NCBI GenBank assembly: GCA_963674745.2 | Contig: CAXXDV010000003.1 | Span: 192,001-256,000, forward strand | Reading direction: 5' to 3' | Length of the DNA stretch: 64,000 bases | Source of the DNA: Desulfosudaceae bacterium | GTDB taxonomy: Bacteria; Desulfobacterota; Desulfobacteria; Desulfobacterales; Desulfosudaceae | Position numbers and translations under genes: made by a program | The notes under the pieces: model-generated | Databases searched by the model: none | What the model was told of the DNA's origin: nothing | Seen by the model: only the letters and a program-made list of their open reading frames with translations | Shown here: piece by piece, positions 1,590-10,473 of the stretch | How positions within the stretch are numbered: the first letter of the stretch is position 1 | Layout of the letters: every line of letters begins with the position of its first letter

Positions 1590-1878
1590 ATCTGTGTCTC
1601 GAGAACTTTTTTATAAATCATTTAACCGGCCCCAAAAGGGTTAAGGCGTGAAAAGAACGGTTTTGTGAAGTCCTAATAGTTTAATTCCGGGCTGTCGCAA
1701 TAAGCACGAATTGTTTAGTTTTTATAAAGAAAATAATAGCATGAATAATGACAATTATTCAAATATTTTATGCGGCAAGGCAGGCCCCGGAATGATTCGG
1801 GGTATAATTTTTAAATATATTTCAATCAGGACCGCTTAATTGGAAAAGCGGACATATCCCAAAAACAGTAAATAACAC

Positions 1879-1907
1879 TTGACTTTTCCTCTTTGCTCAT
1901 GTACCAA
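1879..1907 (+). promoter_or_regulatory. Candidate sigma70 promoter of the aro leader/operon
   Basis: TTGACT-N17-TACCAA about 50 nt upstream of the leader ATG; the -10 match is weak. Confidence 0.35.
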
Positions 1908-1957
1908 ACCATAAAATACGATCAAGGGTATATATTTTATATTAAATTGAAAGTGTC

Positions 1958-2044
1958 ATGAGCGTGCGTAACCGTATAGACAGATTCTATTTTTTTTATT
2001 TTTGGTATTATTATTTTAATACCGGTCTGTCTGTGGTGCGTTGA
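1958..2044 (+). CDS. Attenuator leader peptide MSVRNRIDRFYFFYFWYYYFNTGLSVVR (28 aa)
   Basis: ATG 1958 to TGA 2042-2044; 11 consecutive aromatic codons (5 Phe, 5 Tyr, 1 Trp) at 1985-2017; lies directly upstream of a terminator and the aromatic biosynthesis operon. Confidence 0.9.
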   Translation: MSVRNRIDRFYFFYFWYYYFNTGLSVVR

Positions 2045-2087
2045 ACTGAATTAAATAAAGAAAACAAAAAAAGCCGCGGGCGGATCG
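2023..2087 (+). promoter_or_regulatory. Antiterminator helix of the aro attenuator
   Basis: CGGTCTGTCTGTGGT (2023-2037) pairs uninterrupted over 15 bp (6 G-U pairs) with GCCGCGGGCGGATCG (2073-2087), which includes the 5' arm of the terminator. Confidence 0.8.
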
Positions 2088-2110
2088 AACAAGCCCGCGG
2101 CTTTTTTTTT
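2073..2110 (+). terminator. Intrinsic terminator (attenuator) upstream of aroA'
   Basis: GCCGCGGGC, 11-nt loop, GCCCGCGGC, then T9 (2102-2110); preceded by A7. Confidence 0.92.
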
Positions 2111-2156
2111 CGCGGGCGCCGGTCTTTTTGTCAGCGCGTGAACAGGAGGAAGGACC

Positions 2157-2960
2157 ATGACGATTTTGGGGAAAAAAATCAGGCTGGAGCGGTTGGTTAA
2201 CAGAAACACAGGCAGAACGGTGATCGTCCCTATGGATCACGGTGTATCGGTGGGCCCGATTGACGGGGTGACCGACATCCGGACCGCGGTGGGACTCGTG
2301 GCCGAGGGCGGTGCCAATGCCGTGGTGGAGCACAAGGGCCTGGTGCCCAAAGGACATCGCGGCGGCGGACGGGATATCGGTTTGATCATTCATCTGTCGG
2401 CTTCAACCAGCCTGTCTCCGACGCCGAACGCCAAGACCCTGGTCTGCACGGTTGAAGAGGCCGTCAAGCTGGGAGCGGATGGCGTGTCTATCCATGTCAA
2501 TATCGGCGATCGGGATGAAAAACAGATGCTGAAAGACTTCGGGAAAATCAGCGCTGATGCCCGGGAATGGGGAATGCCGCTGCTGGCCATGATTTATCCC
2601 CGGGGAGAGAAAATCAAAGACGAATATGATGTCCAGGTGATCAAACATGCCGCTCGCGTTGGAGATGAACTCGGGGCGGATATCGTCAAAGTCTCTTATA
2701 CCGGCGATGTGGATACCTTCCGACAGGTCGTGGCCGGATGTGCCATACCGGTGGTGATCGCAGGCGGACCGAAGATGGATTCGGACAAGGCCATTCTTGA
2801 AATGGTCAAAGGGGCCATTGACGCCGGTGGTGCGGGTGTGTCCATCGGCAGAAATGTTTTTCAACACGCCAATCCGTCCCGAATGGTGGCGGCTATCGCC
2901 GCAGTGGTGAATGAGGAGGCTGATGTCGATCAGGCGCTGAAAATGCTGAATCAATCTTAA
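2157..2960 (+). CDS. aroA': 2-amino-3,7-dideoxy-D-threo-hept-6-ulosonate synthase (archaeal-type, DhnA/class I aldolase family)
   Basis: [30 protein letters not shown] (Schiff-base Lys), AGGP and GRNVFQ motifs; RBS AGGAGG; adjacent to DHQ synthase II. Confidence 0.88.
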
Positions 2961-2981
2961 TTTTCGGAAAGGTGGAGGACC

Positions 2982-3974
2982 ATGCGAAAAATATGGGTCA
3001 AGGTTGATCCCTGGGATAAAAAGATGGTGACAACCGCGCTGGAAGGGGGTGCCGACGGGATACTGGTACCACCGGGGTGTTCAGAAAAGGTCAAGGAACT
3101 GGGAAGGGTTGAAACCATTGCCGAGGACGGAGACCTTAAACTTGGTGAAGAGGTGGTTTTTTTTGAGATCACATCGAGCGACGATGAAGAAGAAATTATC
3201 CGTCTCTGCCGGGATAAAAAAGTGATTCTGCAATGTCCGGACTGGACCATTATTCCCCTTGAGAACCTGATCGCCAGGCAGGTGGATGTCATTACACAGG
3301 TGACCAGTGCTGATGAAGCGCGGACCGCGGCCGGTATTCTGGAAAAAGGCGTTCGGCACCTGCTGGTGGACGCGCCTGATCCGGTGGAATTAAAGAACGC
3401 CATTTCGGCCATCAGGGAAAAAGGGGATCAGACCCCGCTGCAGGTGGCCGAGATAACCGAAATCAGGGCGGTCGGCATGGGTGACCGGGTATGCGTTGAT
3501 ACCTGTACCGCTATGACGGAAGGGCAGGGAATGCTGGTGGGTAACAGCAGCGGGGCGCTTTTTCTGGTTCATTCGGAAAGTATCACCAATCCTTACGTTT
3601 CACCCCGTCCGTTTCGGGTCAATGCCGGGCCGGTCCACGCTTATACCCGGGTGCCCGGCGGGAAAACCCGGTATCTGTCGGAACTGTCCGCCGGGGACCG
3701 GATTCTGATCACAGATTACCAGGGCAAGACGACCGAGGGAGTGGTCGGCCGTTTGAAAATCGAGAAACGCCCGTTGATGCTGGTCAAAGCCGTTGTGGAG
3801 GGCAAGCCGGTTTCCACCATTGTTCAGAACGCGGAAACGATCCGCCTGACAGCCCCGGACGGCAAACCGGTTTCGGTTGTAGCACTCAAACCCGGAGATA
3901 GCGTGCTGGTGTCCATTGAGGCGGGAGGACGGCATTTCGGTTATAAAATCGAAGAGACGATTACGGAAAAGTAG
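2982..3974 (+). CDS. aroB': 3-dehydroquinate synthase II (NAD-dependent, archaeal type)
   Basis: DWTIIPLENLIA, GDRVCVDTC, RPFRVNAGPVHAY, KIEKRPLMLV, QNAETIRL and GRHFG...I.E.I.EK motifs. Confidence 0.93.
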   Translation: MRKIWVKVDPWDKKMVTTALEGGADGILVPPGCSEKVKELGRVETIAEDGDLKLGEEVVFFEITSSDDEEEIIRLCRDKKVILQCPDWTIIPLENLIARQVDVITQVTSADEARTAAGILEKGVRHLLVDAPDPVELKNAISAIREKGDQTPLQVAEITEIRAVGMGDRVCVDTCTAMTEGQGMLVGNSSGALFLVHSESITNPYVSPRPFRVNAGPVHAYTRVPGGKTRYLSELSAGDRILITDYQGKTTEGVVGRLKIEKRPLMLVKAVVEGKPVSTIVQNAETIRLTAPDGKPVSVVALKPGDSVLVSIEAGGRHFGYKIEETITEK

Positions 3975-4016
3975 GCCCGGTAACGATGCCATGTCAATGC
4001 AGGATGGAAAATACTC

Positions 4017-5120
4017 ATGAACCGGAACAACACGGAAAAAACAGAAAAACGGATCGAAGATCTTCGCCGTGATATTGATGCTATTGATGTCAGAATCCTG
4101 GACCTTTTGAATGAAAGGATGGCACTTGCCCGGCAGATCGGTGAATGTAAGGCCGGAGCCGGACACGCCATTGTGGATAAAGCGCGCGAAGACAATCTGC
4201 TTAAAGCGTTATTGTCGCAGAATCCCGGCCCGCTGGATAATGAAAAACTGAAAAAAGTATTCAGTGAGATTATTGCTGCCGCCAGACAGGTCCAGGAGCC
4301 CCGTATCATATCTTACCTGGGCCCGGAGGCAACCTTTACCCATGTGGCCGCTCTGTCCTATTTCGGGAGATCCGACACATTGATCCCGCAACCCAGCATC
4401 AAGGACGTGTTTGACGAGGTGGAAAAAGGGGCCAGTCGTTACGGCGTGGTGCCGGTTGAGAATTCCATAGAGGGGGCCGTCAATCATACCCTGGACCTGT
4501 TCCAGGAGTCGGATCTGCAGATCTGTGCCGAAGCGTATCTGGTTATTTCCCATGACCTGCTGTCACTTTCGGGGGAGCTGGATAAAATCAGGACGGTTTA
4601 TTCCCACCCGCAGACGTTCGCGCAATGCCGGCGCTGGCTGAATAAACATCTGCCGGAGGTGAGCCTGGTGGAATGCAGCAGTAACGCTCAGGCCGCGAAG
4701 ATGGCCATGGCATCGGATGAAACAGGCGCCATTGCCGGCCGGGAAGCGGGCAGGATTTACGGGTTGCAGGTCGTCGCCTCCCGGATTCAGGATGTCGTCC
4801 GCAACACCACTCGTTTTCTGGTTATCGGAAACGACCGGGTGCCCCGGACCGGTAACGACAAGACATCGATTATGCTGGTCACGGCCCATGTCCCCGGCGC
4901 CCTGTTCCAGGCCCTGGGTCCGATTTCCGAGGGCGGCATCAACATGCTGAAGCTGGAATCACGGCCGGCCAAGTATGAAAACTGGAGTTATGTGTTTTTC
5001 GTGGATCTTCTCGGCCATGCCAAAGACGAACCGGTCACGCAGACATTGGCCCTGATGAAGGACAGGTGCCAGTTCCTTAAAGTGCTCGGATCTTATCCCG
5101 TTGCGACGATAAAGGGTTGA
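4017..5120 (+). CDS. pheA: Chorismate mutase / prephenate dehydratase (P-protein)
   Basis: N-terminal AroQ-type mutase (LRRDIDAIDVRILDLLNERM); PDT motifs LGPEATFT, VPVENSIEG, SHPQ, NTTRF; ACT domain ESRP...LGSYP. Confidence 0.95.
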   Translation: MNRNNTEKTEKRIEDLRRDIDAIDVRILDLLNERMALARQIGECKAGAGHAIVDKAREDNLLKALLSQNPGPLDNEKLKKVFSEIIAAARQVQEPRIISYLGPEATFTHVAALSYFGRSDTLIPQPSIKDVFDEVEKGASRYGVVPVENSIEGAVNHTLDLFQESDLQICAEAYLVISHDLLSLSGELDKIRTVYSHPQTFAQCRRWLNKHLPEVSLVECSSNAQAAKMAMASDETGAIAGREAGRIYGLQVVASRIQDVVRNTTRFLVIGNDRVPRTGNDKTSIMLVTAHVPGALFQALGPISEGGINMLKLESRPAKYENWSYVFFVDLLGHAKDEPVTQTLALMKDRCQFLKVLGSYPVATIKG

Positions 5121-5126
5121 CAGAGT

Positions 5127-5960
5127 ATGGATATTGATGCGGAAACAAGGGTTTATTGTGTCCTGGGGAATCCGGTGGCGCACAGCAAGGGACCGGTCAT
5201 GCATAATGCCGCTTTTGCCGCTACCGGTGTCAACGGTGTCTATGTCGCCTTTGCGGTGACGGATATTGCCGGCGCGGTTAAAGGGCTGCGCGCGCTGGAT
5301 GTGGGCGGCGCCAGTGTGACCATCCCCCACAAGGTCGATATCATGCCGCATCTTGACCTGGTGGATGAAGACGCCCTTCGTATCGGCGCTGTCAATACTG
5401 TTGTCAACCGGGACGGCCGGTTAATCGGGTATAATTCAGACTGGCGCGGCGCTGTCCGGGCGTTACAGGAGAAAACCCCGATCAGCGGGAAAAAGGTCAT
5501 GGTGGTCGGGGCCGGTGGCGCGGCCCGGGCGGTTGCCTACGGCATCATGAAGGAGAACGGCCGGCTGATCGTCGTCAACCGCACGGCAGAAAAAGCGAAA
5601 TCCCTGGCCAACGATTTCGAAGGGGAAGCGATGTCCCTGGTGGAAGCCGAATCATGCGACTGGGATATCCTGATCAATACAACGCCGATGGGGATGACGC
5701 CGGTAGATGATCTGTCTCCGGTGCCGGTCCACTGGCTTATACCGGGTCGGGTGGTCATGGATATCGTTTATAATCCTTTGATGACCCGGATGTTGAAAGA
5801 GGCCGCGGAACAGGGATGTGAAATCATCGACGGGGTTGCCATGTTTGTCTATCAGGGGGCTTATCAGTTCGAAGCCTGGACCGGTCGCCGGGCGCCGGTC
5901 GATAAGATGAGGCAGGCGGTACTGGCCGCTTTAAAAGAAAACAGGGAAGGTGAAATCTGA
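5127..5960 (+). CDS. aroE: Shikimate dehydrogenase
   Basis: GNPVAHSKGP, SVTIPHK, GAVNT, NSD, GAGGAARA, NRT, DIVYNP. Confidence 0.95.
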   Translation: MDIDAETRVYCVLGNPVAHSKGPVMHNAAFAATGVNGVYVAFAVTDIAGAVKGLRALDVGGASVTIPHKVDIMPHLDLVDEDALRIGAVNTVVNRDGRLIGYNSDWRGAVRALQEKTPISGKKVMVVGAGGAARAVAYGIMKENGRLIVVNRTAEKAKSLANDFEGEAMSLVEAESCDWDILINTTPMGMTPVDDLSPVPVHWLIPGRVVMDIVYNPLMTRMLKEAAEQGCEIIDGVAMFVYQGAYQFEAWTGRRAPVDKMRQAVLAALKENREGEI

Positions 5961-7222
5961 TGAAAGAAATCAAAACAGGAAAAATCAGAAGTTGTGCGGT
6001 GACCGTTCCGGGATCAAAAAGCTATACGCATCGATGCCTGATCGCCGCGGCGCTTTCCAACGGAATCTGCGAACTGGAGAATTGTCTGGACAGTGAAGAT
6101 ACCCGTTTGACCCGGGTATCGCTGGAAAAGATGGGGGTTGTCATTGAGGACCACAACGGGGCAACAGTCGTGCACGGTACCGGCGGCCGGTTGTCGCCTT
6201 GTGATGATCCGATATACCTGGGCAACTCCGGAACTTCCATGCGTCTTCTGACCGCAGTGGCGGCACTGGGGCAGGGCCCCTATGTGCTGACCGGTTCTGA
6301 AAGGATGACACAGCGGCCGATCGGTGACCTGCTTGACGGACTGAATCGTATCGGCGTTGATGCCCGCAGCCTGGAACACAACGGCTGTCCCCCGTTGTCT
6401 GTAGACGGGAAGAACATGGCCGGCGGGCACATTGATTTAAAATGCGGGCTCAGCAGTCAGTTTTTGTCCGCCTTGCTTCTTGTTGCGCCTTATATAAATG
6501 AAGGGCTGGATATCGCGGTTGTGGAAGGACCGGTTTCCAAGCCTTATATCGATTTAACGGTTACCATAATGGAAAAATACGGTGTGCGTCTGGAACGGGA
6601 CCGTTACGCCCGGTTCCGTGTTCCCGGTGGGCAATGCTATCAGAAAGGCCGATATGTCGTTGAGGCGGATGCCTCACAGGCCGGTTATTTCTGGGCCGCC
6701 GCCGCTGTAACCGGGGCAACCGTCAAGGTCCTGGGGATGTCTTCGGATTCACAACAGGGCGATATCCGCTTTCTTGAGGTGTTGGAGGCTATGGGCTGCC
6801 GGGTCGCGCATGAAGCCGACGGTATTTCCGTAACCGGCGGTAAACTGGTCTCGGTGGAGGTGGATATGTCGGACATGCCGGATATGGTCCCCACCCTGGC
6901 GGTTGTGGCGGCTTTTGCCAGAGGTTCCACGGTCATCAGGAACGTGGCACATTTAAAAGCCAAGGAAAGCGATCGTCTGGCCGTTGTGGCCAACGGGTTG
7001 AGCAAAATGGGTATTATCGCCATGAACGATAATGTCGGTTTGACGATTATCGGTGGCCGTCCATCCGGTGCCCGTATTGATCCTCACGATGATCACCGGA
7101 TCGCCATGAGCTTTGCCGTGGTCGGCCTGGTTACGCCGGGCGTCATTATTCTGGATGAAAATTGTGTGGAAAAATCGTTTCCCACATTCTGGCAGGTATT
7201 TGAAACCTTGTATGAATCCTGA
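5960..7222 (+). CDS. aroA: EPSP synthase
   Basis: PGSKSYTHR, GNSGTSMR, SSQFLSALL, KESDR, DHRIAM, KSFPTF. Confidence 0.96.
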   Translation: MKEIKTGKIRSCAVTVPGSKSYTHRCLIAAALSNGICELENCLDSEDTRLTRVSLEKMGVVIEDHNGATVVHGTGGRLSPCDDPIYLGNSGTSMRLLTAVAALGQGPYVLTGSERMTQRPIGDLLDGLNRIGVDARSLEHNGCPPLSVDGKNMAGGHIDLKCGLSSQFLSALLLVAPYINEGLDIAVVEGPVSKPYIDLTVTIMEKYGVRLERDRYARFRVPGGQCYQKGRYVVEADASQAGYFWAAAAVTGATVKVLGMSSDSQQGDIRFLEVLEAMGCRVAHEADGISVTGGKLVSVEVDMSDMPDMVPTLAVVAAFARGSTVIRNVAHLKAKESDRLAVVANGLSKMGIIAMNDNVGLTIIGGRPSGARIDPHDDHRIAMSFAVVGLVTPGVIILDENCVEKSFPTFWQVFETLYES

Positions 7223-7229
7223 AAAAACA

Positions 7230-7751
7230 ATGAACATATTTCTTATCGGCTACCGCTGTACCGGAAAAACAACCGTGGGCAGGCGCCTGGCGGTTTTGAC
7301 CGGAAGGCGTTTTGTGGACACGGATGATTGCTTTACCGACCGGCATGGCGTTACCATTACCGAATTTGTGGCCGATTACGGCTGGGAAGCGTTTCGTAAA
7401 CAGGAATCAGTTGTTTTAGACACGGTCTCCCGGGAGGACGGGAATGTCGTATCAACCGGCGGGGGGATTGTCCTGAAACCGGAAAACGTGTCGCTGATGA
7501 AAGATCGTGGCCTGGTGGTCTGGCTGATGGCGTCGAAGGAAACGATACTGGATCGGATGTCAGCCGATCCCGCTTCGGCGGATTTCCGTCCGGGGTTGAC
7601 CGACTATCCGTTGCAAGAGGAGATTGCCAGAACACTGGCTGAAAGAACGCCGCTTTATGAGAATGCCATGGACCTTTCGGTTGATACCGAAGGTATGGCG
7701 GTCGAAGATATCTGCCGCCGCGTCATTGGCGCGGCGGGCGGGAAAGGATGA
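7230..7751 (+). CDS. aroK: Shikimate kinase
   Basis: MNIFLIGYRCTGKTT Walker A, DTD, GWEAFR, STGGG, R..LY. Start is probably ATG 7230 (or 7212), not the track start at 7113. Confidence 0.92.
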   Translation: MNIFLIGYRCTGKTTVGRRLAVLTGRRFVDTDDCFTDRHGVTITEFVADYGWEAFRKQESVVLDTVSREDGNVVSTGGGIVLKPENVSLMKDRGLVVWLMASKETILDRMSADPASADFRPGLTDYPLQEEIARTLAERTPLYENAMDLSVDTEGMAVEDICRRVIGAAGGKG

Positions 7752-7754
7752 ATC

Positions 7755-8807
7755 ATGTCCGGAAACACATGGGGAAGGTTGTTTCGCGTAACGACCTGGG
7801 GCGAATCACACGGCCGGGGAACCGGCGTGGTCATTGATGGCTGCCCGCCGGGAATATCCCTGGATGAGGGCGTGGTCCAGGCGATGCTGGACCGCCGTAA
7901 ACCGGGACAATCCAGTGCCAGCACCAAACGCCGAGAGAAGGACCGGGCCGTTATTATGTCCGGGGTATTTGAAGGCGTGACGACCGGGACCCCGATCATG
8001 ATCATGGCCGAGAACAAGGACGCCGACTCATCGGCATACACTCCGTATGCCGGTCTGTTCCGCCCCGGACATGGTGATTATACTTATGCCGGCAAGTACG
8101 GGGTCCGGGACTGGCGTGGCGGCGGCCGGGCCTCGGCCAGGGAGACACTGGCCAGGGTGGCCGCCGGTGCCGTGGCCGGAGCACTTCTGGAAAAGGCGGG
8201 GATTCGGGTATATTCTTATACAGAAGAACTCGGTGGTATTGCAGCAAAAACAATCGATCTTGAAGAGACCGGTCGGAACATGTTCTGTTGTCCGGATGCT
8301 GAAGCCGCTCTTAAGATCGCCGTCCGCGTGGATGAGGTCAGGAAAAACGGTGATTCGCTGGGAGGCATCGTGGCGGTCCGGGCTACCGGTGTACCGGTTG
8401 GCCTGGGGGCGCCCGTGTTTGACAAGCTGGACGCCGACATCGCCAAGGCCCTGATGAGTATCGGTGCCGTCAAGGGAGTTGAGATCGGTGCGGGCTTCGC
8501 GGTAGCGGCAAGAACGGGTTCGGAAAATAATGATGAGATGACACCGGAAGGTTTTACGTCGAATAATGCCGGCGGTATCCTGGCCGGTATTTCCAACGGG
8601 GATGATATTGTCGTCAGGGCAGCGGTTAAGCCCATTCCCTCAATCGCCAGCGAGCAGAAGACCATTGACACGGATGGTAACCCCACTACCGTTTCCGTCA
8701 AGGGACGGCATGATATCTCGGCCATCCCGCGGATCAATGTCGTCTGTGAAGCCATGCTTTGCCTTGTTCTGGCAGATCATTTTTTAAGACAGAAAGCGAT
8801 TAAATGA
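7755..8807 (+). CDS. aroC: Chorismate synthase
   Basis: [44 protein letters not shown]. Confidence 0.97.
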
Positions 8808-9655
8808 ACGGTATCAAAATAGGCATCATCGGTGGTACCGGCGGGATGGGCCGCTGGTTTGAAAAATATTTTAGGGACAACGGTCATCAGGTGCTGGTCG
8901 CCGGCCGAAAGACGGATTTGACTTACCACGACCTGGTCGATAAGTGCCGGGTATTGGCTATCAGCACCCCTCTGGAGCCGGCTCTGGAAATTATCGGCAA
9001 AATAGGTCCGACCCTGCGTGAGGATCAGCTGCTGATTGATTTTTGCTCCCAGAAGGAACGCATTGTCGAGCGGATGGCGGATGCCACCCCGGCCGATGTT
9101 ATCGGTACACATCCCATGTTCGCACCCAACACCCCGTCTATCAGTGGGCTGAACGTCATTGTCTGCCCGGCACGGGACAGGAACGGCTGGCTACCCTGGC
9201 TGGAGTCCCTGTTTTCGGAAAAAGGCGCTGTTGTTACCCGCATGGATCCGGCTGAGCATGACCGGAAGATGGCCATGGCTCAGAGCCTGATGCATTTTCT
9301 GACCCTTTCCCTGGGGCGTATGCTTCAATGTTTCGATTTAAGTGCGGCAGAAGCGTTCCGCTTTGCCACCCCCATTTTCCGCATTAATATTGATCTCATC
9401 GGCCGTCTCCTGTCCCAGGATATCAATCTGTATGCCGAGCTGGTCAGTGACAATAAATATGCACCGGAAATTTTGCAATCATTGTCCCTTGCCATGGATG
9501 ATTGCCGAAAAGCGTTTTTTTCCGGGGAAAGACAGTCGGCGCTGGCGTTTATGGGATCAATCAGGGATTTTCTGGGGGATGATTTTTGTCAGCAGGCACT
9601 GGACGAGACCACCCGGTCGTTGAGTATCATGTATGAGCCGGTAGAAAAAGCGTAA
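8804..9655 (+). CDS. tyrA: Prephenate/arogenate dehydrogenase
   Basis: GGTGGMG Rossmann motif, D..S.K, HPMF, EHDRKMA..QSL.HF; last gene of the aro operon. Confidence 0.88.
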
Positions 9656-9723: not shown

Positions 9724-10473
9724 TTATTTCAATTGCCGTCTGTCGCGGCGGGAGGAAAAATCGGTCAGCGGCCGAAGCGGTGCTTTTTGATTTTTCTGTT
9801 TTTCTTCTTTTTCATCTTTCATTTGCATGGCGGACATGAGGACATTCATAAGCGGCTGCTTGATGACATTTTCCCGCTTACGGCAGATGCCCTCAACCTC
9901 AATGATGATCTTGTCCCAGGTCAGCAGTTCCTGGGCGGCTTTCATGCCGGTCAATCTTTCGGAGGCAGCGTTGATCAGTGCGCCTTCCCGAAAATACATG
10001 TTGCCGGTTTTTTCGCCGGATCTAACCTTGATGGTGGCGGTTTTTTTTTCCATTTCCATCAACTGCAGAAAGGAGGAAAGACTGATCCCCGAGATTTGTC
10101 CTTCGGCGCCCGCGTTTAACTGTTCGAAAACAGCATCGGTCAGAATGTCCATGTTAAGAGGCTTTTCAAAATATTTGAAGGCGCCCATTTCCATCACCTT
10201 GTCCTCGATTTCCTTGGTGCCGAAAGCGGTCATGATGAACACCGGTGTGCCGGGGTAATTTTTATTGATGTATTCCAGAAGCTGGATGCCGTCCATAATC
10301 GGCATTTCCAGGTCACTGATGATAAGGTCGATGGTGTTATCCGTCATCAGGTAGGCGGCTTCTTCGCCGTTTTGAGCGGTCAGAATTTCAAAGTCCTTGG
10401 CGTAAGGTTTCATTACCCTTGATAACAATCCGCGGGAAACCGCGTCGTCATCAACGATGAGAACTTTTTTCAC
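9724..10473 (-). CDS. Response regulator: receiver domain plus DUF4388-like C-terminal domain
   Basis: VLIVDDD...SDLEMP...MTAFG...EKP receiver; GISLSSFLQLMEMEKKT...G.MYFREG.LINA pattern. Confidence 0.85.
   Translation of the reverse strand: MKKVLIVDDDAVSRGLLSRVMKPYAKDFEILTAQNGEEAAYLMTDNTIDLIISDLEMPIMDGIQLLEYINKNYPGTPVFIMTAFGTKEIEDKVMEMGAFKYFEKPLNMDILTDAVFEQLNAGAEGQISGISLSSFLQLMEMEKKTATIKVRSGEKTGNMYFREGALINAASERLTGMKAAQELLTWDKIIIEVEGICRKRENVIKQPLMNVLMSAMQMKDEKEEKQKNQKAPLRPLTDFSSRRDRRQLK

Follow-up and report, generated by a model that had tools for sequence, protein, structure and literature searches.

Leaders that respond to more than one amino acid are known from the enterobacteria, where the thr leader senses Thr and Ile, and the ilvGMEDA leader senses Ile, Leu, and Val. 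The his leader folds through a chain of more than four segments, and the thr, ilv, and his chains end in a single terminator. The element described here lies in a 64,000-nucleotide (nt) stretch of a Desulfosudaceae bacterium (contig CAXXDV010000003.1, positions 192,001 to 256,000), which we call the window; positions are those of the window unless another sequence is named. It consists of a short leader open reading frame (ORF) with eleven consecutive aromatic codons and a set of competing RNA helices, upstream of the genes aroA'-aroB'-pheA-aroE-aroA-aroK-aroC-tyrA. From its sequence it is very probably a ribosome-mediated (leader-peptide) transcription attenuator of these genes, of the classical kind. 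This reading is based on the sequence elements and their energies, on folds computed with a 30-nt mask in place of the ribosome, on conserved and covarying positions in about 90 relatives, and on a paralogue in the same genome that is specific for Trp; from these we infer where transcription starts, that the leader is translated, that the ribosome stalls, and how each amino acid acts.

Among known systems, Escherichia coli pheL-pheA and Corynebacterium glutamicum aroR-aroF come closest, the latter being the nearest functional precedent. The E. coli system, whose mechanism is described in PMC3082878, shares with the window a short ORF with a run of Phe codons, antiterminator and terminator alternatives, a U-run, and a position before chorismate mutase/prephenate dehydratase. 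The window differs from it in that the run mixes Phe, Tyr, and Trp codons and is placed in the loop that segments 1 and 2 enclose, not within segment 1, and in that the operon, which begins with entry enzymes of the archaeal type, covers the whole common pathway and also has tyrA. The best Rfam match was Phe_leader (RF01859; window 1980-2110, 34.6 bits, E 8e-4). Its gathering score is 55, so the element is not an RF01859 member by the Rfam criterion, and nothing in 1500-2400 reached a gathering score. For C. glutamicum, the consulted sections of PMC11802643 describe aroR as a Phe-Tyr-Phe leader that acts by ribosome stalling and shows a response to Phe and none to Tyr. As in aroR-aroF, mixed aromatic codons would control the shikimate entry step in the window, with eleven aromatic codons against three, and with 2-amino-3,7-dideoxy-D-threo-hept-6-ulosonate (ADH) synthase and 3-dehydroquinate (DHQ) synthase II plus pheA and tyrA against a 3-deoxy-D-arabino-heptulosonate 7-phosphate (DAHP) synthase operon (PMC11802643, same sections). 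This likeness is functional only, the two being compared by description and not by sequence or structure.

The preliminary description of this locus had allowed that comparative predictions might already exist, and this was right in a small way. In one sentence of Gurvich et al. (PMC3082878), a pheL gene is said to be 'potentially' in use in Desulfobacterium autotrophicum; it probably belongs to the same element family as the window leader, and that passage mentions it only in passing, without structure, the F/Y/W mix, the link to aroA' and aroB', or the distribution. Beyond this sentence, no description of the element was found in the consulted parts of the literature, and an earlier prediction may exist elsewhere. 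Rodionov et al. 2004 (PMC545781) was considered as the source of a delta-proteobacterial aromatic attenuator and rejected; its text has the terms aromatic, leader peptide, tryptophan, aroA, and shikimate 0 times each. A term search for the element in Kuehl et al. 2014 (PMC4045070) gave 0 occurrences. In the literature searched, no described regulator was found for the ADH synthase/DHQ synthase II route.

Leader reading frame and competing helices

The leader ORF starts with ATG, runs for 28 codons plus UGA (product MSVRNRIDRFYFFYFWYYYFNTGLSVVR; coordinates of all features are given in Table 1), and ends 112 nt before aroA' on the same strand. Codons 10-20 are aromatic without interruption (11/11: 5 Phe, 5 Tyr, and 1 Trp; FYFFYFWYYYF). 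In a six-frame translation of the 5.5-Mb genome, this run was the only stop-free stretch of eleven codons with 11/11 aromatic residues, and only two stretches reached at least 10/11, the second being a poly-F simple repeat. The translation agrees with the unannotated 28-residue ORF of the preliminary description. Ten leader peptides, including this one, were looked up in a collection of 15 billion proteins and none was present, so gene-calling pipelines do not call such leaders.

The minimum free energy (MFE) fold, computed on 1940-2125, had an energy of −61.6 kcal/mol (z −4.76), and 0/200 shuffles were as stable. In this fold segment 1 paired with most of segment 2 to give the protector helix 1:2, an inner hairpin (2003-2010/2017-2024) stood in its loop, and the 5' part of segment 3 paired with segment 4 in the terminator stem (2073-2081/2093-2101), extended by A/U pairs. 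The resulting intrinsic terminator T1, at 2066-2110 between the leader and aroA', has a G+C-rich stem of 9 base pairs (bp), the A/U extension, and nine T in a row (U9 in the RNA) directly 3' of the stem. The antiterminator 2:3 has 15 bp, of which 6 are G-U pairs by hand count. Duplex energies for 1:2, 2:3, 3:4, and 4:5 were −20.4 kcal/mol, −25.8 kcal/mol, −29.3 kcal/mol, and −17.2 kcal/mol, respectively. Dinucleotide shuffles as good as the native pairing numbered 13 of 1000 for 1:2, 3 for 2:3, and 162 for 4:5; the 4:5 pairing is not significant in the window sequence alone. Protector and antiterminator share segment 2, and antiterminator and terminator share segment 3, so each of these pairs is mutually exclusive. 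The preliminary description had placed a protector at about 1975-1986 with 2024-2035, a 15-bp antiterminator at 2023-2037 with 2073-2087, and a terminator at 2073-2101 plus nine T, and all three were recovered here.

The geometry of a translating ribosome was examined by masked folding of the transcript 1945-2092, in which segment 3 is made and segment 4 is not, with 30 nt kept single-stranded as a ribosome mimic. With the A site at codons 10-19, 2:3 formed with 13-17 bp and took up the T1 5' arm in full (9 nt). At codon 20, 10 bp of 2:3 were left, and from codon 21 through the stop codon there were 0 bp. The switch point is the end of the aromatic run, and this constrained folding, which had been proposed as a check on the scheme, came out in its favor. 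Over 91 leaders, the median gap was 5 nt between the run and segment 2, and −1 nt between the last nucleotide of segment 2 and the stop codon. For the full transcript, the terminator fold was more stable than the fold with 2:3 forced (−54.0 vs −39.9 kcal/mol). The choice between the folds must therefore be kinetic, as it likewise is in known attenuators.

Anatomy, masked-fold geometry, and the comparative evidence below strongly support the core of the earlier proposal, in which protector, antiterminator, and terminator make up an attenuator that is worked by the ribosome and controls the archaeal-type shikimate entry genes plus pheA and tyrA. In such an attenuator, the conserved TTGACT promoter would start transcription about 45 nt upstream of the AUG, and a ribosome would translate the 28-codon leader. 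When Phe-tRNA or Tyr-tRNA (probably also Trp-tRNA) is scarce, the ribosome would stall within the run, so that 1:2 would stay open and segment 2 would be exposed. Segment 2 would then pair with segment 3 once the latter is made, the 5' arm of T1 would be sequestered, and RNA polymerase would read into the operon. When the aromatic tRNAs are charged, the ribosome would reach the UGA (2042-2044) and cover segment 2, 3:4 would form, and termination would follow in the U9 stretch. With no translation, 1:2 would form first, and the terminator would form too.

Conservation and covariation in relatives

The scanner used to collect leaders accepted ORFs of 8-60 codons with 5 or more aromatics in 10 residues. 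The first sample was drawn from 40 related genomes and comprised their aroA' orthologues, with identities of 68-100%. An aromatic-run ORF was present upstream of the orthologue at 26/27 loci, the 27th having just 71 nt of upstream sequence, and at 0/3 paralogue loci of other genomes (L028-L030). In the second sample, public contigs of Desulfobacterales, Desulfosudaceae, Desulfobacteraceae, and some Syntrophobacterales and Desulfobaccales, it was present at 70/80 loci, and 4 of the 10 misses had incomplete upstream sequence. After pooling, de-duplication, and restriction to loci with at least 300 nt upstream (Desulfobacterales, Syntrophobacterales, and Desulfobaccales), the leader was found at 92/97 unique loci, one of which (L084) has an atypical 70-codon ORF. 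For other families of the phylum, one locus was taken for each of 20 further matches, with 10 clear leaders, 1 ambiguous, 1 cut, and 8 without a leader. Given the leader at 92/97 loci and at 10/20 in other families, the attenuator element is old and widespread in Thermodesulfobacteriota.

Two of the loci had unusual upstream regions. At L106:400-700, on a contig of a metagenome-assembled genome (MAG; JAZDGK010000009.1), a TTGACA box and two tandem GGCCGUGG-type terminator-like hairpins precede aroA', and an aromatic leader ORF was not found there; the sensor of this locus is either lost or different. At L073:400-700 (MAG contig DZCT01000345.1), about four copies of a tandem repeat of about 24 nt lie between the remnant of a second terminator and aroA', with the attenuator pushed further upstream.

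RNAalifold on the first MAFFT alignment of 26 sequences recovered the terminator alone, and the named helices were therefore tested on a second alignment instead (A2; MAFFT, 77 Desulfobacterales-type leaders), which is the basis of the following helix counts. In the terminated state (1:2 plus 3:4), 87.1% of the cells were paired, compared with 33-41% when the helices were slid. Compensatory changes were present at 13/19 pairs, and on four of five measures 0/500 shuffles did as well as the real alignment. Taken singly, 1:2 was 82.6% paired with compensatory changes at 6/10 pairs, and 3:4 was 92.1% paired with compensatory changes at 7/9 pairs. The read-through state (2:3 plus 4:5) was 84.0% paired, compared with 40-51% when slid. 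Sequence by sequence, the 2:3 duplex beat all but at most 10 of 200 shuffles in 79/91 leaders.

The expectation that relatives would show a conserved aromatic run and covarying helices upstream of aroA' held for the run (92/97 loci) and for 1:2 and 3:4. It did not hold for 2:3 within the Desulfobacterales type, where conservation outweighs covariation in this helix. Stronger support for 2:3 comes from covariation between groups at the level of the whole helix. Syntrophobacterales-type leaders have different segments 2 and 3, GCGCCUCGACUUUUAAAAG against CUUUUAAAAGCCGUGGCGC, which fit each other with a median of −28.5 kcal/mol, as against −14.2 kcal/mol and −16.4 kcal/mol with the Desulfobacterales partners.

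Several observations weigh against the attenuator reading. In A2, 2:3 alone was 78.8% paired against a shuffle mean of 77.1%, and 115/500 shuffles reached its compensatory-pair count. One internal position of 2:3, column pair 90/147, was unpaired in 50/77 sequences, and four leaders of the 'YYPWP' type gave a significant 2:3 duplex in 0/4 cases under the region definition used. A ribosome-free partial transcript preferred 2:3 over 1:2 at equilibrium, so termination without translation depends on the folding order, with 1:2 forming first. The Shine-Dalgarno (SD) sequence of the window leader is weak (GAAAG), and an SD-like motif at −16 to −4 was present in just 62/91 leaders. A test of frame openness anchored on the RNA motif did not discriminate, as two frames were mostly open (stop-free in 73/77 and 75/77 sequences) and the third was stop-free in 26/77. 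Finally, 5/97 pooled loci were without a leader (L043, L048, L068, L073, and L106).

Inputs of the leader and competing explanations

Over the 91 leaders, 784/873 run codons (90%) were aromatic, with Tyr at 427, Phe at 290, and Trp at 67. Codon position 1 was T in 799/873. C was present 124 times at position 3, against 21 and 19 times at positions 1 and 2, as UAC and UUC, and UAU alternated with UAC and UUU with UUC within the runs. The start codons were ATG in 77 leaders, GTG in 10, and TTG in 4, a start being required by the ORF definition.

A second leader was found in the same genome (G000). Directly upstream of its trpE gene (ATG at G000:C1:1320645) lies a Trp-rich leader, MNIQQTKESSKRFNGNWWWQSWRLGSADGV (G000:C1:1320423-1320515 = L112:592-684), after which come a terminator, AACCGUGGGC...GUCCGCGGU9, and another hairpin with a U-run; the whole element spans L112:592-816 (G000:C1:1320423-1320647). 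Features that this trp leader has in common with the aro leader are the ORF itself, a segment 2 of the GGUCUGCC type, a terminator of the form RCCGYGGGC...CCGCGGYU9, and a GGCC-arm hairpin after it. Unlike the aro leader, it has W codons (NWWWQSW), a segment 1 that overlaps the regulatory codons, and an intact second hairpin with a U-run. A genome-wide motif scan gave the terminator motif together with an amino-acid-run ORF at two loci only, the aro and trp leaders. The two align over the terminator, and GGUCUG(U/C)C occurs near the 3' end of the ORF in both, the copies being out of register in the pairwise alignment. The trp leader, which appears to be an aro-leader paralogue, had no Rfam match at E 0.01 or better. 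As F/Y codons precede the pheA-tyrA operon and W codons precede trpE, codon content follows the pathway controlled, and the trpE leader is the strongest single argument that the run is read as codons.

Sensing of Phe and Tyr is well supported by the codon content of the run, and Trp is a plausible third input. The preliminary description had one leader sense all three aromatic aminoacyl-tRNAs. This stands for Phe and Tyr; for Trp it is weakened by the small share of Trp codons, by a UGG that sits in a conserved hairpin, and by the separate trpE leader. There is an appreciable chance, short of our preferred expectation, that the same attenuator has fewer inputs, namely Phe and/or Tyr only, with UGG kept mainly for pairing with CCG in the inner hairpin and Trp left to the trp leader. 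Trp accounts for just 67/873 run codons and is within the run in 62/91 leaders and absent from it in 29/91. The UGG codon (2003-2005) is part of the conserved inner hairpin (2003-2010/2017-2024), so the conservation of W may be partly structural, and in L010 the codon is AGG, the partner strand has changed, and the pairing is kept (by eye). The trpE gene has its own WWW..W leader, and the Phe-Tyr-Phe leader aroR of C. glutamicum answers to Phe and not to Tyr in the consulted sections of PMC11802643, a case in which having the codon was not enough for a response. However, with UGG in the A site segment 2 was left free and 17 bp of 2:3 formed, so a stall there should work. Chorismate, the product of the operon, is also needed for Trp synthesis, and W was found somewhere in the peptide in 69/91 leaders, including Syntrophobacterales-type ones with W outside the hairpin context.

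Two further explanations would do away with the ribosome as sensor or with regulation altogether. A protein, a tRNA, or a small ligand could work the switch by binding the U/A-rich triplet repeat or the helices, in the manner of TRAP, a T-box, or a riboswitch, with an incidental ORF. The run is indeed a U-rich repeat with a period of 3 nt, in principle a binding array, and the frame test left two frames open. We nevertheless hold this to be very improbable. A start codon was present in 91/91 leaders (by definition), the stop falls right at segment 2 (median −1 nt), and the codons track the pathway, F/Y for the pheA-tyrA operon and W for trpE. As to particular sensors, a search of genome G000 (99.96% complete) for the TRAP family PF02081 was negative, with a positive control in B. 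subtilis, and there was no T-box or riboswitch family among 30 Rfam matches up to E 10. Still less credible is an independent gene for an aromatic micropeptide with its own terminator, an operon promoter further downstream, and no regulatory link. A strong terminator does follow directly after the short ORF, as such a gene would have it, but the ORF always lies directly upstream of aroA' on the same strand, the alternative helices overlap its 3' end and covary, and no TTGAC box was seen in 2110-2156. Moreover, peptide length and sequence vary outside the aromatic run and the RNA-constrained tail, and 0/10 leaders were a called protein in the collection of 15 billion sequences.

Second terminator, operon, and meaning

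In 47/65 Desulfobacterales-type leaders outside the window's family, T1 is followed by a second hairpin with a U-run (T2). The 5' arm of T2 is segment 5, GGCCGUGG, and it is able to pair with segment 4, the 3' arm of T1. The resulting helix, 4:5, was 90.6% paired over 77 sequences and had compensatory changes at 4/11 pairs, one of which, for example, read AU in 36, GC in 20, and GU in 11 sequences. It was often as stable as T1 or T2; automatic parsing of the post-leader hairpins was unreliable because 4:5 often outscored one of the two, and its results were used qualitatively. In L023, L025, L026, and L094 the first hairpin has no U-run, and the second alone is terminator-like. The simplest reading for the relatives would be a chain of helices governing two terminators. 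Charged tRNAs would lead to 1:2, 3:4, and 5:6, and a stalled ribosome to 2:3 and 4:5, so that one decision would set both terminators. The thr, ilv, and his chains differ from this chain in that most relatives would have two terminators in it, the second being decayed in the window's family.

In the window's family, 12/12 leaders have a single hairpin with a U-run. Segment 5 is kept, and it changes along with segment 4 in L007, L009, L010, and L011 (by eye). Between the terminator and the aroA' SD, a GUUU(A/G)CG or GUUGCA motif was seen by eye in window 2111-2156 and in the same region of L002-L012; it resembles a degenerate remnant of the 3' arm and U-run that the second terminator has in other families. 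A role of segment 5 in gating aroA' translation was considered and rejected. Accessibility from the SD to the AUG, with segment 5 free vs held by segment 4, had means of 0.51 vs 0.57 over 11 leaders and was 0.35 vs 0.26 in the window, with no consistent effect. A more far-reaching proposal, which we consider rather unlikely as a whole, would combine a true Phe/Tyr/Trp sensor, an ancient phylum-wide Thermodesulfobacteriota family, and an ancestral chain with two tandem terminators, in which 2:3 frees segment 4 and 4:5 then inactivates the terminator further downstream. Within one genome, the aro and trp leaders would be diverged copies of this module, and the window's family would have lost the second terminator with segment 5 under selection.

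Eight tightly packed ORFs follow the leader on the same strand. Their Pfam and NCBIfam matches bear out the archaeal-type shikimate operon plus pheA and tyrA of the preliminary description. The next ORF, at 9724-10473, is on the opposite strand. The scan of the eight operon ORFs (2157-9655) gave no match to a 3-dehydroquinate dehydratase family, and this step is presumably encoded elsewhere. Two more ADH synthase paralogues were observed in the genome, at G000:C1:82936-83718 (+) with 57% identity and at G000:C1:1185425-1186201 (-) with 55% identity. About 14 kb before the window start, at G000:C3:177587-178342 (-), a second chorismate-binding enzyme, which may be an anthranilate or aminodeoxychorismate synthase in fused form, lies in a 761-residue open frame.

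We infer from its position and conservation that the TTGACT element is the leader promoter, with a start about 45 nt upstream of the leader AUG. TTGAC[AT] was present at most 130 nt upstream of the leader start in 90/91 leaders, compared with 106/1820 mononucleotide shuffles. In the window's family the −35 box stands 17 nt before a TAnnnn box, which in relatives reads, for instance, TAGTTA, TAATTC, or TAAGCA (by eye). The strict pattern TTGACN-N16-18-TAnnnT was matched in just 9/91 leaders, the conserved part being the −35 box alone, and a generic promoter scan of the window did not flag the TTGACT/TACCAA pair. A look-up of sequencing runs for 1700-3200 listed no RNA run; the two runs that contain this stretch come from a single study. 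Further upstream, at 1784-1803 (+), 75 nt before the predicted −35 box, we observed a terminator-like hairpin, GCCCCGGAAUGAUUCGGGGU, with a U-rich tail, which is probably the end of an upstream transcription unit.

Table 1. Features of the aro leader and its operon in the window, in order of position.
Feature	Position	Strand	Basis
Predicted −35 box TTGACT of the leader promoter	1879-1884	+	Sequence; conserved in relatives
Putative −10 box TACCAA, weak	1902-1907	+	17 nt after the −35 box
Weak SD-like GAAAG, 4 nt before the leader AUG	1949-1953	+	Sequence
Leader ORF MSVRNRIDRFYFFYFWYYYFNTGLSVVR	1958-2044	+	Translation; homologous aromatic-run ORFs at 92/97 unique orthologous loci
Segment 1, 5' strand of protector 1:2	1976-1985	+	Pairs with 2025-2034 in the MFE fold
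Regulatory run, 11 aromatic codons FYFFYFWYYYF	1985-2017	+	Translation; unique in genome
Inner hairpin UGGUAUUA...UAAUACCG in the 1:2 loop, with the Trp codon	2003-2024	+	MFE fold; conservation by eye, alignments A1 and A2
Segment 2, shared strand (with 1 or 3), encodes the conserved peptide tail TGLxVV	2023-2037	+	Duplex and masked folds, alignment
Segment 3, pairs over its full length with segment 2 in the antiterminator; 2073-2081 forms the 5' side of the T1 terminator stem	2073-2087	+	
Segment 4, 3' arm of T1	2093-2101	+	MFE fold
U9, predicted release site of the attenuated transcript	2102-2110	+	Sequence
Segment 5, CGCGGGC, repeats the sequence of the T1 5' arm and is able to pair with segment 4	2111-2117	+	5' arm of T2 in most relatives
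SD AGGAGG of aroA'	2144-2149	+	Sequence
aroA', ADH synthase	2157-2960	+	Pfam DeoC 238 bits; NCBIfam TIGR01949 383.3 bits, cut-off 299.45
aroB', 3-dehydroquinate synthase II	2982-3974	+	Pfam PF01959 423.6 bits; NCBIfam NF002627 507.4 bits, cut-off 392
pheA, chorismate mutase/prephenate dehydratase with ACT domain	4017-5120	+	Pfam, NCBIfam
aroE shikimate dehydrogenase, aroA 5-enolpyruvylshikimate-3-phosphate (EPSP) synthase, aroK shikimate kinase, aroC chorismate synthase, tyrA prephenate dehydrogenase	5127-9655	+	ORFs 5127-5960, 5960-7222, 7113-7751, 7755-8807, 8804-9655; Pfam

The aro leader leaves the accepted view of attenuation unchanged. Its family, with about 100 covarying sequences, is usable for an RNA-family model, and genome annotation would gain from it, leaders of this kind not being called as genes. 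The paired aro and trp leaders, together with the gain and loss of the second terminator across families, would provide a natural series for the evolution of attenuators. For the organisms themselves, the element would show how the archaeal-type (ADH synthase/DHQ synthase II) route to the aromatic amino acids is controlled in those Thermodesulfobacteriota that live by sulfate reduction or in syntrophy.

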